Source: Sulfolobales archaeon HS-7 (GTDB lineage Archaea > Thermoproteota > Thermoprotei_A > Sulfolobales > Sulfolobaceae). From it: DNA of 64,000 nt. Made by a program: the position numbers and the translations under genes. Of this stretch, positions 23,330 through 30,762 are shown piece by piece. Position 1 is the stretch's first letter. Every line of letters starts with the position of its first letter. Under the pieces are notes generated by a model, which saw only the letters and a program-made list of their open reading frames with translations, had not been told where the DNA came from and made no database searches. The stretch is from the NCBI GenBank assembly GCA_019704295.1, contig AP024596.1, positions 480,001 through 544,000 on the forward strand, given 5' to 3'.

Positions 23330-24115
23330 ATGGCAAATGTAGACGGCGTTGATAAGCATATACTGATGTCGTTATTTTACAATGGAAGATTATCGCAGAG
23401 AGCGATAGCCACTAAACTAAAGGCAAACCCCCCTTCAATCAATTACAGGTTTAGTAAACTCGAATCAGATAAAATCTTATTGGGATATGACCTCTACGTC
23501 AATCCGAACAGTCTCGGAAAATATCATGCATTTATAGCTCTTTCTAATACTGAGAACATTAAGGAATTTTACACAGCCTTTAGGTGCCTTGAAGAGATAA
23601 ACCTCTATCAAATAATAGTTAGTAATGAATCTTACCTTTCTGAATTAATTGAGAGATATAAGCCCTTGATGTCTTACATTCCAAGGCAAGATATAAAGCC
23701 GCTTTTATCCTTCGATAAAAGAATAATACAAACATTGGTGAATAATCCTAGACTTGATATTCATGAGATATCTCAGAAATTTAAGACCTCTAGCAGGACA
23801 ATAAAAAGACACCTAGAATTCTTGCAGAAAAACGATATAGTGAAAGTAATACCAAGGGTTAATCTAGATGAAGCTGGACTAGTAATGGGAATAATATTTT
23901 CTAGGAACGGCTCACAAATAGGTCCTGTAGTCTCCCATTACTCCTTCTTTAATATTGATAATGAAAAAGATTCTTTATATATTTTTGTAGCCGACAACCT
24001 TTCAAGAGCTAAGCAAATAATTAGTAAGGCAAGGCAAATTGACCCAGAGACTAAAGTCATGATAGTATATGAGTATGAAGTTAACAGCGCTTTAATTAGT
24101 GAACTTTTACTTTAA
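23330..24115 (+). CDS. Transcriptional regulator with two Lrp/AsnC-type HTH domains
   Basis: VDKHIL…NGRLSQRAIA…INYRFSKL and FDKRIIQTLVNNPRLDIHEIS…TIKRHLEFL. Confidence 0.8.
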   Translation: MANVDGVDKHILMSLFYNGRLSQRAIATKLKANPPSINYRFSKLESDKILLGYDLYVNPNSLGKYHAFIALSNTENIKEFYTAFRCLEEINLYQIIVSNESYLSELIERYKPLMSYIPRQDIKPLLSFDKRIIQTLVNNPRLDIHEISQKFKTSSRTIKRHLEFLQKNDIVKVIPRVNLDEAGLVMGIIFSRNGSQIGPVVSHYSFFNIDNEKDSLYIFVADNLSRAKQIISKARQIDPETKVMIVYEYEVNSALISELLL

Positions 24116-24135
24116 TTACATAGGAGGGGATTTAC

Positions 24136-24396
24136 CTAGCAATTGGACGAGGATGAGTTTTTCTTCGTGCTTCTTCTTTTGATTACTATATGGTAAACGT
24201 TCCCTTTCTTCTCTGCACTGGTTAACTCCTGTTCTAAAGTCTTAACTCCCTCAACAATCATATCATAACATTTCTGATCAGATGTAATCACCTCTAACGT
24301 ATCCCCTTCTTTCATCTTAGTTAGCGTTGCCATTGCCTTAATAAAGGGGATCGGGCATTCCTCAGACGTCAAGTCCATAACCTTTGACAAAATCAC
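24136..24396 (-). CDS. TusA/SirA-family sulfur carrier protein
   Basis: [10 protein letters not shown] (CPxP), [10 protein letters not shown]; GTG start overlaps the stop of the SelD-like gene. Confidence 0.88.
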
Positions 24397-25781
24397 ACCA
24401 CCTCAAACTGTCCAAGTATATTTTTCCTAACTATTAGTTCTGCTATATCCTGAGGCGCGATGACTTTTCCTTCGCTTTTCGATACTACTTCACCAATAAT
24501 TGAGGGTTGACCTCCAGCCTTATGAATTCTCTCAGCTACCTCATCAATTACATGTCCTTTAGCGAAAATCACTATTCCCCCATTCGTACCAGCTGTGGAA
24601 TTGGGTATAACGAAGTTTTCTGTCGAGAACTTGCAGATTCCCTTATCAATTACAGGGATCTCATCCAACCTTATGGTTACTCCTGCCTTATCGGCGAACT
24701 CCTTTACTACGAAGACTCCAGGCCCTGATACATCTGTTGTCATAGCTATGTGTTCGTTGGGATCGAAGGTCTTTCCAAACTCAGGTAAATGTTCGTAAAT
24801 CACCTTAGCAACGTCGAAGTTAGGCTTTGCCATAAGTTCTATAGCTTCATGCTTTATCTTACTCACGTAACCAACTGATATTCCCGTCTTCTCTAGATCC
24901 TCAATCATATCTGGATTTATCATAAGCCACATATAGAGGTTGATAGGAGTTAATTCCCCCATAGGTCTTGTTACTAATATTTTCATTCCTGGTTCAACAT
25001 CACCATAAAAGGTGGGTAGTTCGTGATCTGTCTCACCTATTACCGTAGCCCCCTGCATAAACGTACCAGTAGTCGGCTGAATCTCATCGACTAATTCGAC
25101 TTTATACTCTTGAGAGTACTTTACGAAGTTATTTCGTATACTCTCTGTAACCTTAAGGTCGGGAGAATCGTAAACTGGTATGATCTTTATGTTCTTAAAG
25201 GTGCCCTTTGCGAATAAGTCGTTTAACGAATTGGAAATAGCCACTTGGGTATGCGTATAAGAAGTAGGTTCCTCCACTGGGTCAATTATTTGAATTGTAT
25301 CGTTGTTAGTTAGTGTATACGATTTCCTAGTATTACCCTTTAGTCTAATAGCATCGATTACTGCAACTTCTCCATTCGGATTAGACGTAATTATCGAATG
25401 CCCCTTACCAATTATCAGTTTATGGGATGTTTTTATTGATAAATATGTTTTTAGAAGGAATTGAGAAAATAGTTCTGGATCCCCCCCAGTTTTCTGATTA
25501 ACCTGAATTAGCGAAACTGCTCTGTCTGCGTCAAAGTTACCCCCATTAATAAGCCGTTTAATCTCAAAATCCTGCGAGATGAATATGTCTGCGTCTTCGC
25601 GAGGGGAAATCTCTATATTGTTAGCGAGCAATACTTCCTTTATTTTCTTGATTGCGGGATATACTATATCGATCAAGTCAACCTTTACTGCACACCCAGT
25701 AGCTAATGATAGCGGATTAATGCCCATAGATTTGTATTTGTTAACTCCCTCCATGAACTTCCTTTGTTCGTCCTCATACAT
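24393..25781 (-). CDS. SelD-like (selenophosphate synthetase-related, PurM fold) putative sulfur metabolism protein
   Basis: ATGCAVK (CxxK), [34 protein letters not shown]. Confidence 0.85.
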
Positions 25782-25838
25782 AAGTAATAAGAATGAAAAT
25801 GCTAATTTAAAAGTAACTAAGGTTGAAAATAATCTGAT

Positions 25839-27125
25839 TTATAAACTTCCGTTTTTATTTAAAGATTTAAAGATATAAGAAGATATAAGTAAAAGTGCCC
25901 CAGCTAGCCCGAAATCGACATCAAATCCTATATAATGAGATATATATCCCGATAAAAGTGAACCCATTAGTTGGGCAATCCCTACCATAGTGCTGTATAC
26001 ACCTAATCCAGTACCCTGCCTCCTTTCTCCAACTACCTTAAATACTAAAGTCGTTGAGGAAATATAGTATATTGCGTATGCGACTCCAGCCGCGAGAGGA
26101 TACATAACAAGGCTAATTCCAATGAGATATGCTCCCACGAGAAACGCCGACGTAATACCTATTCCAATATATGTGATCCCTCTTAATATCAGCGATAAAT
26201 AGGAAGATAAATGTTCACCTATTTTTTTCACTACGTCTCCAGCTTTCATGAACGATATAGTCTGTACTATCATTCCGACCGTTATAACTACCATTACGTC
26301 TAACTCGCTTATGCCGCTCCTATAGAGAGCTACTGGGAACTGCGTATTAAAAAGTCCGCTAGATATGTAGAAAATGAATATTGCCAAATAGAGCAAAGGA
26401 ACGTAATTTATTAAGCCGTTCCTAAGTCTTGACAACGAGAATAACTTGAAATGATTAAGATTAGGAAAATGAAGAAAGATTAAAGGATGCATCTTCAGCC
26501 TGGTTATAAAAGAGTCCTTATGATGAACCATTGCAGTCCTTTCTATTATAGAATGAGTATTCGGAACTAACTTCAATGATGCGAGGAAAGATATAACCTC
26601 AATAAATCCTAATACTTCGATAACCTCGAATATATGAAAGATAGGTGTTATTACTGAGGAAAAAACATATCCTACGACACCGCCTATGGAAGACAACATA
26701 GAAAGGGTTGAGAATTCGGTCGCCCAATCCTTCTTCGGAACGGATTCCATAAGTAGAAGGTTGATCGGGGTATTGTAACCTACATTACAAAAAACAACAA
26801 ATGAGTACAAAATTGAAATTTCCGGTATACTCTTAAATAGAGGGAAGAGAAGTAAACCTAGCGAAGTAGTTCCAAAGCTCACCACCACTAGTAATTTCCT
26901 GTTGAACCTATCAGCTGCCTTTCCCCATATATAGGACGCTGGTATTAAAATTAGGTTTCCAAGAGTAATTACATTACCGACGTCAATAGCGTTTCCCCCT
27001 AGTGAAAGTATATCTAATGTAACCAAAGTTGATATTGGAGCCAATGCCATGTTTACTGGGAGCGTTATCCACATCCAGCTTCTTTTAACACTAATCATGA
27101 ACTGTTTCTCCTTTAACTGATTCAA
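25839..27125 (-). CDS. MFS transporter (start may be the ATG at 27098)
   Basis: WGKAADRFNRK motif A; 12-TM pattern; GGAGA SD before 27098. Confidence 0.88.
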   Translation of the reverse strand: MNQLKEKQFMISVKRSWMWITLPVNMALAPISTLVTLDILSLGGNAIDVGNVITLGNLILIPASYIWGKAADRFNRKLLVVVSFGTTSLGLLLFPLFKSIPEISILYSFVVFCNVGYNTPINLLLMESVPKKDWATEFSTLSMLSSIGGVVGYVFSSVITPIFHIFEVIEVLGFIEVISFLASLKLVPNTHSIIERTAMVHHKDSFITRLKMHPLIFLHFPNLNHFKLFSLSRLRNGLINYVPLLYLAIFIFYISSGLFNTQFPVALYRSGISELDVMVVITVGMIVQTISFMKAGDVVKKIGEHLSSYLSLILRGITYIGIGITSAFLVGAYLIGISLVMYPLAAGVAYAIYYISSTTLVFKVVGERRQGTGLGVYSTMVGIAQLMGSLLSGYISHYIGFDVDFGLAGALLLISSYIFKSLNKNGSL

Positions 27126-27497: not shown

Positions 27498-28661
27498 ATG
27501 AAGGTTATAGTTCTAGGCGCTGACGGTTACTTAGGTTGGCCGCTAGCGTTAAGGCTTTCAGCTAGAGGTCACGAAGTAGTAGGAGTTGATAACTTATTTA
27601 CAAGGACAACCGTTGAGAATAGTGGAAGCAGTAGCGCTATACCCATACCACCCCCAGAAAGTAGAATTGAAGCAGCAAGAAACATACATGGTTTTGATAT
27701 TAAGTTTATAAAGGAAGATATAACAAAGCCTGGTTTCCTTAGAGAGTTAATAGAGAAGGAGAAACCAGATGCTGTAGTTGATTTCGCAGAGCAGAGAAGT
27801 GCTCCCTATTCAATGAAAGGGGAGAACGAGAAAGTCCATACAATAGTGAATAACTTAGTGGGCACAATAAGGCTAATAGAAGCTGTAAAGTCGGTAGATC
27901 CATCGATTCACATATTGAAAATGGGTACGATGGGGGAATACGGTACTCCGAACTTCGATATTCCAGAATCACCTTTTGTTCAAGCGATAATAGGTGGAAA
28001 ACAGGACAGGATCATAACTCCGAAAAAAGCAGGTTCAATTTATCACTATTCAAAAGTATTTGATACGTACATATTCCTATTTGAGAATGAGGTATCTAAT
28101 ATAACGGCAACAGACATAATGCAGGGTCCTGTTTATGGAACCAGAACTTCTGAAATAATTCACGAATCTCTTCACACTAGGTTTGACTTTGATGAGACTT
28201 GGGGGACTGTTGTTAACAGATTCTGTGTGGAGGCAGTAATAGGAACTCCACTTACTCCTTACGGTAAGGGAGGTCAGACTAGAGGATTTCTATCCCTAGA
28301 GGACAGTATGGAAGCATTAACTTTACTCCTGGAGAATCCTCCCAAACCTGGAGAATATAGAGTCGCAAACCAGTTCACGGAAATATATAGTATAAGGCAG
28401 ATAGCAGATATGGTAAAGAACGCAGCCGAAGCATTAGGTTTAAAGGTGAGTATTCAACAAGTCGAAAATCCAAGGATAGAAGCTGAACAACATTACTACA
28501 ACCCCGAAATAAAACTTCTACCCTCTTTGGGATTTAAGCCTAAAAGGAGAATGGAAGACGAACTAAAAAGTATGATTAAAGACTTACTGCCGTATAAAGA
28601 AAGGATCTCTCAATACTCACATGTAATCCTTCCTAAAACGAAGTGGAGAACTAAGAGATAA
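27498..28661 (+). CDS. agl3: UDP-sulfoquinovose synthase (SqdB/Agl3)
   Basis: GADGYLG, FAEQRSAPYSM, GTMGEYGTP, YHYSK, DIMQGPVYG, YGKGGQTRG, NPRIEAEQHYY. Confidence 0.9.
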   Translation: MKVIVLGADGYLGWPLALRLSARGHEVVGVDNLFTRTTVENSGSSSAIPIPPPESRIEAARNIHGFDIKFIKEDITKPGFLRELIEKEKPDAVVDFAEQRSAPYSMKGENEKVHTIVNNLVGTIRLIEAVKSVDPSIHILKMGTMGEYGTPNFDIPESPFVQAIIGGKQDRIITPKKAGSIYHYSKVFDTYIFLFENEVSNITATDIMQGPVYGTRTSEIIHESLHTRFDFDETWGTVVNRFCVEAVIGTPLTPYGKGGQTRGFLSLEDSMEALTLLLENPPKPGEYRVANQFTEIYSIRQIADMVKNAAEALGLKVSIQQVENPRIEAEQHYYNPEIKLLPSLGFKPKRRMEDELKSMIKDLLPYKERISQYSHVILPKTKWRTKR

Positions 28662-29280: not shown

Positions 29281-30762
29281 TTGAAGCTAACAAGCTTTTA
29301 TGTTAGTAACTTCAAGGGATTGAGAGAGGCCAAGTTTGATAACCTAAATGGTATTAATGTAATCGTTGGATACAATGGATACGGGAAGACTAATGTGTTG
29401 TCTGCGATTTACATGTTCTTAAAGAATATGGAACTGGGGTTAGATAAGAAGGCGATGGACGACCCCAATCAAGAGTATATACTTTGGTGGAAAGATTACG
29501 ATATATCTAAACCGATAATCATGAGCGGGAAACTCTTATTTCCTGCTGGAGAGGCTCAGCGAATAGCGGATACACAGAGGGACATTTCGCTCGACGTGAG
29601 TATGGAGTTAACGTATTCAAAAAATCAGGTGAGCTGGAAGACCAGGGATTTTCTGATAAACGGACGCTCACCTTCAGGTGAGGACATACAAGACATCAGG
29701 AAATTTCTAGCGTATGTAAAGGAAAATGTGGATTACATACCTATATTTGACCAAAACTTCTTCGAGCAAACTTTACGAAAGATGGCTGAGATGAACAGAT
29801 CTCCTATAAATCTTCGAAAGTATTGGTATGATTTCGTAAACTTAACGAGTAAGGTCATTCCCGAGATTAAGGGTTTGGAATTCTGGGAGTTTAAGAAGCT
29901 CGTATTGAACGTGTATAATACTCCCATTTACATCGATATAGTTGCGAGCGGGTTCCAAAAGGTAGTGCTTATGCTGTTCGTGTTATGGCTAAGCGCAAAT
30001 AAGATTCTCTTAATCGAAGAACCGGAAGTAAATATGCACCCGCTCCTTCAAATAAAGGTCTCTAAGTTAATAAGGAAGTGGGCAGATGAAGATGTCTTCC
30101 AGGTGTTTCTTACAACTCATTCCCCATACTTTACTAGTCAGGATATTAGAAAGTTTATTATAATGAGGAGGAATGGAACTTATGGGACAGCCCACTCCCT
30201 TGATATAACGGATGAACTTAAGCTGACCATGTCAATGCTTGGAATCTCCCTGAGCGACTTACTTTTTTCGCGAACTATTATTTTAACTGGAGAACAGTTG
30301 GAACCACCGCTAGTTAATGCATGGCTATACAAAATTTCCGTCGATCCAGAGGAATTAGGAATTAAGGTATTTAAGGTAAGGGGAGATATAGATTTACAAT
30401 TATGGCTGAAAATTAAGGACACAGTCCCTCTGCGAATAATGTTCCTAGGACTTTGTGAGAAGTTAAATGATAACAATAGAGACAGTTGTGTATCCTTTAA
30501 TAAAGATGTGGAGACGTTCTACGACAGAAACGTTATCATTAACATTCTGAAAGAAATGGGAATATATCCAGATGATAAGGAAATGAGAGAACTAGGAAAG
30601 GATGATATATCAAAGTGGATATTAGGCGTCATGAAGCGCAGAGGGTACGAATATTCTTGGTACAGGGAGAATGTAAGTAGAATTATTGCCGAGATGGATA
30701 ATGTAGAAGTACCTCGGGAGATCGAAGTACTCGCAAATAAAATAAAAAGTGTTGAGGTTTAA
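29281..30762 (+). CDS. ABC/Rad50-type ATPase, OLD-family-like, with degenerate TOPRIM-like C-terminal domain
   Basis: NFKGL, Walker [15 protein letters not shown] signature, Walker [13 protein letters not shown]-loop TTHSP. Confidence 0.8.

Follow-up and report, generated by a model that had tools for sequence, protein, structure and literature searches.

Proteins related to selenophosphate synthetase (SelD) with a proposed role in sulfur metabolism were described by Li, Jiang, Ni, Liu & Zhang (2014, BMC Genomics 15:908; PMC4210487), who reported conserved Cys and Asp/Asn residues, fusion to acylphosphatase in Thermoproteales, neighbouring genes for SirA-like (TusA) and "Prx-like" (DsrE) proteins and a co-occurring major facilitator superfamily (MFS) gene in Thermoproteales. 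The same authors proposed the link to TusA and a thiophosphate model. A 2022 review still treated the function of the family as a hypothesis, stating that it "might be involved", which agrees with the initial annotation of the locus examined here, where the biochemistry was likewise placed at the stage of a proposal. The window, a stretch of 64,000 nucleotides from Sulfolobales archaeon HS-7 (GCA_019704295.1, contig AP024596.1, positions 480,001-544,000), contains four genes at 23,330-27,125 that encode, in order, a regulator (+), a TusA-family sulfur carrier (-), a SelD-like enzyme (-) and an MFS transporter (-). The functional unit is a two-gene operon consisting of the SelD-like gene followed by TusA, and the HS-7 enzyme is a member of the previously described family whose operon in this genome is unusually compact.

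The SelD-like protein of HS-7 matched NCBIfam NF038049, "SelD-related putative sulfur metabolism protein", over residues 8-460 of 462. A Pfam scan of the protein gave no match, and the profiles of canonical SelD scored far below their cut-offs (TIGR00476, 17.4 bits against 125; NF010705, 53.8 bits against 291). The N-terminal loop reads L-A-T-G-C-A-V-K, giving Cys30-x-x-Lys33 with the cysteine encoded by TGT, and Cys30 was invariant in an alignment of 24 NF038049 members from several orders. Conservation of at least 90% was also found in this alignment for G29, V32, K33, D35, R61-E62-D63, K126-G127-H128-S129-I130, N159-N160-D161-T162, N184, N187, D188, D350 and a TAGTNG motif, while the acidic and Asn motif residues of the protein are D63, D161, D167, N184, D188 and D350. 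Three canonical SelD proteins from other Thermoproteota have 339-344 residues and a loop that reads HGCSCK, making the SelD-like protein approximately 118 residues longer. About 80 residues of this excess form a single insertion between REDAD (61-65) and NNDT (159-162), which bears the conserved GKGHS motif (126-130). The spacing from the Cys to the first acidic motif is 33 residues, compared to 32 in canonical SelD. Profile-profile alignment with canonical SelD using hhalign covered residues 175-445 with 97.7% probability and paired N184/D188 and D350 with the SelD ligands; the same three residues aligned with SelD Asn/Asp positions in the comparison with human SEPHS1. Alignment of the N-terminal 170 residues was blocked by the insertion, so that the equivalence of the Cys loop with that of SelD rests on how the motifs are spaced and on the stretch covered by the structural superposition, not on an alignment at residue level.

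The AlphaFold (AF2) model of the SelD-like protein had a mean predicted local distance difference test score of 92.5; only the region of the Cys loop was modelled less confidently. The nearest solved folds were human SEPHS1 (Z 27.5) and E. coli SelD (Z 25.6), with the superposition starting at model residues 10-12; the top match covered 317 residues from model residue 10 with a root-mean-square deviation of 3.1. The selenophosphate synthetases were followed by HypE (Z 23.3) and then by ThiL and PurM. The enzyme is predicted from this model to have a PurM-superfamily fold with an N-terminal loop of the catalytic type.

The SelD-like and TusA genes abut whichever of two possible TusA start codons applies. 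The GTG start overlaps the TGA stop codon of the SelD-like gene as GTGA, and the GAGGTG that precedes it lies inside the end of the SelD-like gene. The alternative TTG start is located 8 nucleotides past GAGGTG and gives a better match to the N-termini of the orthologues than GTG. As read from the DNA, this junction supports co-transcription and probably coupled translation. In Sulfolobales, a TATA-like box approximately 28 nucleotides before the ATG is the usual promoter geometry for a leaderless mRNA. The TATA-like TTTTAAAT is found approximately 28 nucleotides ahead of the SelD-like ATG, within the gap that separates this gene from the MFS gene, so the operon probably consists of the SelD-like gene and TusA without the MFS gene, and it probably has a promoter of its own and a leaderless mRNA.

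The window TusA matched PF01206 with 62.3 bits against a cut-off of 28.6, and its best NCBIfam match was YedF (NF008242) at 35.7 bits, under the cut-off of 79. It contains three cysteines, located in the C-P-I-P motif, in TSDQKC and at the terminal position (SSSSNC) after a Ser/Lys-rich linker. A search with the window TusA gave orthologues in 38 of 41 Sulfolobaceae genomes, of which 28 sequences were read for cysteines and tail. Every one of the 28 has the CPxP Cys together with another Cys within a conserved xxKC, xxQC or xxRC motif, and 26 have a terminal Cys after a Ser/Lys/Gly-rich linker of 12-20 residues (...GGC, ...SGC, ...STC). The Cys-ended tail is a conserved subfamily feature of the Sulfolobaceae TusA orthologues and is newly reported here; it was not found in the SelD-like-linked TusAs of other orders. 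All that the initial annotation had read directly from the sequence of the two genes was confirmed, including the 462-residue SelD homologue with CxxK and a TGT-encoded Cys, the metal-binding Asp/Asn motifs (D63, D161, N184, D188 and D350 being among the conserved residues), an excess length estimated at about 100 residues, the GTGA overlap with its GAGGTG, to which the TTG start has now been added, and the CPxP motif, extra Cys and SSSSNC tail of TusA. Its description of the tail as unusual does not hold among the Sulfolobaceae orthologues.

SelD-like loci were collected by whole-genome searches of Thermoproteota and by a pattern scan of 185,579 species genomes, in which a single-protein query gave no loci and an alignment query did, leaving 106 unique loci after deduplication. 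TusA was directly adjacent to the SelD-like gene in 62 of the 106 loci, on the same strand in 55, and within five genes in 76. A rhodanese gene was found within five genes in 31 loci, a YeeE/YedE-type Sulf_transp gene in 23 and DsrE in 20, and 90 loci contained at least one of TusA, transporter, DsrE or rhodanese within this distance. Acylphosphatase was fused to the SelD-like protein in 27 loci and encoded by the next gene in 31. Genes resembling dsrAB, together with ATP sulfurylase, were also present in the Thermoproteaceae loci. The association of SelD-like with TusA is strongly conserved across lineages, which supports the pair as a real functional unit, as the initial annotation had supposed for the core of its proposal.

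Members of NF038049 scoring 543-569 bits were found in metagenome-assembled genomes (MAGs) labelled Thaumarchaeota/Nitrososphaerales, Hydrothermarchaeales and "Halobacteria", and a contig of 406 kb with the label Acidobacteriota carried one. The family thus extends beyond hyperthermophilic Crenarchaeota and, as it appears, beyond archaea as well. Judged by the MAG labels, its range appears wider than in the 2014 description, the Thaumarchaeota and the one Acidobacteriota MAG being new here. The operons outside Thermoproteota (L105 in Acidobacteriota, L130-L143 in Thaumarchaeota) contain two TusAs and a double rhodanese; upstream of these genes, the Thaumarchaeota loci encode beta-propeller proteins and YedE-like transporters, and an acylphosphatase is also present in the Acidobacteriota locus. 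Two divergent SelD-like proteins from a family other than Thermoproteaceae (L065:6980-8341 and L067:314-1753) scored 240-267 bits, at or just under the cut-off. Both keep the Cys and lack the Lys, REDAD and GKGHS, and their genes lie next to, and divergent from, those for 3'-phosphoadenosine 5'-phosphosulfate (PAPS) reductase and ATP sulfurylase.

The SelD-like/TusA pair is proposed, by analogy and with about even confidence, to carry out an ATP-dependent activation of sulfur of the thiophosphate type. TusA would carry sulfane sulfur as a persulfide or thiosulfonate, probably via the CPxP Cys, and would hand it to the SelD-like enzyme at Cys30, which lies on the flexible N-terminal loop. The enzyme would phosphorylate the sulfur with ATP held at the conserved Asp/Asn-metal site, the products by analogy with SelD being thiophosphate (or an enzyme-bound equivalent), AMP and phosphate, and the activated sulfur would feed a housekeeping or essential thiolation. 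The thiophosphate route suggested in the initial annotation was in this respect reasonable, but it repeats what Li et al. (2014) had already proposed. The formation of thiophosphate is reportedly attributed to mammalian SPS2 in work on selenium deficiency. Such deficiency can lead to thiophosphate, and UGA is then read as cysteine instead of selenocysteine (review, PMC6770646). The S. islandicus orthologue M164_2661 (COG0709), whose own orthologues are Saci_2268, SSO2635 and Msed_0781, is listed as essential by transposon sequencing (PMC6249222, supplementary file 6). A housekeeping role fits this listing better than a role in energy metabolism, and the pathway is therefore probably central rather than accessory. 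If the family makes thiophosphate, this would be a biological sulfur donor without earlier demonstration and the sulfur counterpart of selenophosphate.

Several points weigh against this proposal. The substrate and product of the SelD-like enzyme are assigned entirely by analogy. A plain thiophosphate model leaves acylphosphatase without a function, and 58 of the 106 loci have this domain fused or encoded next to SelD-like; the acylphosphatase of HS-7 is encoded only far from the locus, at 1.93 Mb. The partner proteins score best against selenium-associated families. Within Sulfolobaceae, three complete genomes of one genus keep the Cys-tailed TusA without a detectable SelD-like gene, another genus has a SelD-like gene with a tail-less TusA, and in the other sampled Sulfolobaceae with a SelD-like gene the window-type TusA is encoded elsewhere. 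Because of the mismatches in the two genera, the SelD-like/TusA pairing is not obligatory and SelD-like is not essential in every relative. A strict rule by which the Cys-tailed TusA is inherited together with SelD-like as its dedicated partner was considered and rejected, since tail and SelD-like occur apart in these genera. The genus with the tail-less TusA includes a SelD-like pseudogene with three in-frame stops (G410:C2:100520-101083).

HS-7 alone among the sampled Sulfolobaceae couples the Cys-tailed TusA directly to SelD-like. In the other sampled Sulfolobaceae with a SelD-like gene no TusA follows it, and its neighbour is usually a divergent rhodanese; some of these genomes have a different type of TusA near SelD-like, in a TusA-flavoprotein-DsrE-DUF1641 cluster, genes that HS-7 has elsewhere. 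A quick TusA tree of 78 columns left many forks unresolved, its reliable parts being a Sulfolobaceae clade with 95% support, which includes the window TusA, and a broad two-way split. The Sulfolobaceae clade is on the same side of this split as the TusAs encoded immediately after SelD-like in Acidilobaceae and in Vulcanisaeta/Caldivirga/Thermocladium. Outside Sulfolobaceae this linkage is the norm, and HS-7 therefore displays it or has restored it. In many Sulfolobaceae (L189-L213, L228) the Cys-tailed TusA has a recurring neighbourhood that includes Lrs14-type regulators, a 201-residue QueC-like PP-loop protein, a GcvH-like lipoyl protein, a conserved 117-residue protein without a family match, a coenzyme A-binding protein and lipoate-protein ligase. 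One further genus (G404, SelD-like at L227:6998-8395) has the closest TusA (52% identity) and MFS protein (53-56%) to those of the window, with the TusA 400 kb from SelD-like. Its SelD-like protein is only 40% identical to that of the window, compared to 55-59% for other Sulfolobaceae, a pattern that may reflect gene replacement in one lineage.

The family matches of the partner proteins, an observation that is new here, bear on whether sulfur or selenium is the substrate. The best match of the partner transporters of other lineages was YedE/FdhT at 160-166 bits (cut-off 350), with the thiosulfate transporter TsuA scoring lower, and the best match of the upstream partner TusAs of other lineages was YedF at 56-74 bits (cut-off 79). 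All three components of the module thus score best against selenium-linked families (YedE/FdhT, YedF and, as the nearest other family of the enzyme, SelD), and in bacteria YedE and YedF are found together with SelD (PMC5322559). In seven Sulfolobaceae loci (S. acidocaldarius-like and Metallosphaera-like) the SelD-like gene adjoins three subunits of a molybdenum enzyme of the xanthine-dehydrogenase/aldehyde-oxidoreductase type, on the same strand in three (L033, L036, L039) and on the opposite strand in four (L032, L034, L035, L082). Such an arrangement echoes the trait of orphan SelD with selenium-dependent molybdenum hydroxylases (PMC2276186). The SelD-like protein could on these grounds be a genuine selenium enzyme that makes selenophosphate for an undescribed use of selenium, such as the labile selenium ligand of molybdenum hydroxylases, and selenium would be handled by the TusA/YedF-like protein. 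However, no match to a selenium family reaches its cut-off, the SelD-like gene of HS-7 is nowhere near the molybdenum-hydroxylase genes of the genome, and the remaining genes that recur nearby are specific to sulfur (DsrE, rhodanese, dsrAB and the enzymes of adenosine 5'-phosphosulfate and PAPS). In the HS-7 genome, a single 2.15-Mb contig with 91% marker completeness, none of selD, selA, selB, selU, SepSecS, PSTK, yqeB and yqeC reached its family cut-off and no selenocysteine tRNA was present among the 49 tRNAs, consistent with the statement of the initial annotation that Sulfolobales are not known to use selenocysteine. The missing selenium genes and the sulfur-specific neighbours favour sulfur over selenium, while the selenium-family matches of the partners and the adjacency to the molybdenum enzyme are the reasons for which a selenium enzyme is retained as an unlikely alternative. 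With sulfur as the substrate, the molybdenum enzyme would be a candidate acceptor of the activated sulfur, because enzymes of this class depend on a terminal Mo=S ligand.

The acylphosphatase association and the TusA tail would also fit a different chemistry, in which the SelD-like enzyme would resemble HypE or other PurM-type enzymes. HypE uses its own C-terminal Cys as the site of its chemistry, and its partner HypF has an acylphosphatase domain. By comparison, ATP would here activate or dehydrate a group on a carrier Cys, such as the terminal Cys of the TusA tail, without free thiophosphate, and the acylphosphatase partner, present by fusion or adjacency in over half of the loci, would supply or trim acyl- or carbamoyl-phosphate. 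This is consistent with HypE being the second-closest fold (Z 23.3 against 27.5) and with the flexible linker that carries the terminal Cys in nearly all of the Sulfolobaceae TusA orthologues. It is opposed by the N-terminal Cys-x-x-Lys loop, a hallmark of SelD that is the most conserved feature of the family, and by the HypE profile TIGR02124, which gave only 18 bits against a cut-off of 251.6; the SelD-like protein itself ends in ...QFEVV and lacks a C-terminal Cys of the HypE type. Furthermore, the Cys tail is absent from the SelD-like-linked TusAs of every other order and does not track SelD-like within Sulfolobaceae, and no HypF-like YrdC/Kae1 partner was seen at any locus. Chemistry of the HypE type is consequently considered quite unlikely, and thiophosphate-type activation is preferred.

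A broader but doubtful extension of the thiophosphate-type proposal is that SelD-like and TusA form a previously undescribed route of sulfur mobilisation without a cysteine desulfurase, in which thiophosphate or activated sulfur bound to TusA would be a general donor for essential thiolations, for example of iron-sulfur clusters, thionucleosides or the Mo=S of xanthine-dehydrogenase-type enzymes, across Thermoproteota, Thaumarchaeota and some bacteria. A SufS-like class-V pyridoxal phosphate protein of approximately 374 residues was present in 39 of 40 sampled Sulfolobaceae (Aminotran_5, 130-176 bits; SufS, 142 bits, under the cut-off). It was not found in HS-7, where the best class-V matches were transaminases and tblastn with the proteins of two relatives gave no match, and HS-7 may depend entirely on such a cysteine-desulfurase-free route. 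SelD-like as a replacement for cysteine desulfurase throughout the family, with a complementary distribution of the two, was not supported: the 39 relatives with the SufS-like protein mostly have SelD-like as well.

The coordinates of the locus and its surroundings are given in Table 1. The initial annotation had correctly placed the MFS gene upstream of SelD-like on the same strand and the tandem-HTH (helix-turn-helix) regulator in convergent orientation; the regulator gene ends 20 nucleotides from the TusA stop. The initial annotation had joined all four genes into one system, in which the MFS transporter would import sulfur species and the regulator would control the cluster, and had itself named a lack of conserved linkage of these two genes as evidence to the contrary. 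No homologue of either (E<1e-3) was found in the 105 other SelD-like loci. Orthologues of the MFS protein were present in 35 of 40 sampled Sulfolobaceae and were located hundreds of kb from SelD-like in the genomes compared; three genomes of one genus have the MFS gene without a detectable SelD-like gene. The regulator contains two HTH domains of the AsnC/Lrp type, and no ligand-binding domain was found among ten Pfam hits at E <= 0.01, a divergent one being possible. Its family is multi-copy, with 2-4 copies in each relative genome and four paralogues in HS-7, none of the paralogues being adjacent to SelD-like elsewhere, and its convergent gene shares no promoter with the operon. No other genes of the window flank the orthologues of the MFS protein or the regulator. 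What speaks for the four-gene system is the position of the MFS gene, 57 nucleotides upstream on the same strand, and the YeeE/YedE-type transporter found upstream of TusA and SelD-like in other lineages. A YeeE/YedE transporter was not found in the HS-7 genome, because of which a stand-in importer is conceivable. The TATA-like box between the MFS and SelD-like genes argues against a shared unit. The system was rejected on conservation across the loci and Sulfolobaceae, and joint action of the four genes is very improbable. The UDP-sulfoquinovose synthase encoded a few kb from SelD-like is another consumer of sulfur, which uses sulfite; its gene is not adjacent to the MFS orthologues elsewhere.

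Table 1. Positions of the SelD-like/TusA operon and neighbouring features in the HS-7 window.
Feature	Position	Strand	Description
SelD-like enzyme	24393-25781	(-)	462 residues; NF038049, 645.6 bits against a cut-off of 250
TusA-family sulfur carrier	24136-24396	(-)	86 residues from GTG or 84 residues from TTG 24390; PF01206
SelD-like/TusA junction	24393-24404	(-)	GAGGTG 24404-24399; GTGA 24396-24393; alternative TTG start 24390-24388
Gap from MFS stop to SelD-like ATG	25782-25838	(-)	57 nucleotides; holds TTTTAAAT at 25812-25805
MFS transporter	25839-27125	(-)	PF07690, 130 bits; likely start ATG 27098; neighbour, not conserved partner
Regulator, two winged-helix HTH domains	23330-24115	(+)	PF13412 and PF13404; neighbour, not conserved partner
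UDP-sulfoquinovose synthase	27498-28661	(+)	Agl3-type; NF041015, 623 bits against a cut-off of 575; divergent from MFS gene
AAA_15/AAA_21 ATPase	29281-30762	(+)	Weak matches to retron and PtuA-type defence ATPases

When compared with the known systems, the SelD-like protein shares with HypE the second-closest fold, and an ATP-dependent chemistry on a Cys at the end of a flexible tail is a HypE feature. In HypE this Cys is on the C-terminus of the enzyme itself, whereas here the terminal Cys is on the partner TusA. The order of transporter, TusA-like and SelD-like genes in other lineages is like that of the bacterial YedE-YedF-SelD selenium module (Lin et al., 2015; PMC5322559); unlike that module, the three parts are sister families under the curated cut-offs, and HS-7 does not have the transporter. 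The selenophosphate synthetases (TIGR00476, NF010705; PDB ids. 3fd5, 3u0o and 2yye) have in common with the HS-7 enzyme the PurM-type fold (Z 25-27.5), the Cys-x-x-Lys loop at near-equal spacing and the ligands N184, D188 and D350. The HS-7 enzyme differs from them in its additional length, the GKGHS insertion, the lack of selenium-using partner genes and the sulfur gene context. The closest agreement is with the family of Li et al. (2014), with which the HS-7 protein has in common the full-length match, the Asp/Asn motifs and the Cys-x-x-Lys loop, the long insertion, the SirA/TusA association and the absence of a selenium trait. That family was reported from Sulfolobales and Thermoproteales only and as absent from bacteria, whereas members above the cut-off are now present in MAGs labelled otherwise. 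In contrast to the other sampled Sulfolobaceae members of the family, HS-7 has TusA directly downstream in the same operon and no acylphosphatase, and because of this tightly coupled pair of enzyme and carrier the locus represents a minimal two-protein system for expression and assay.

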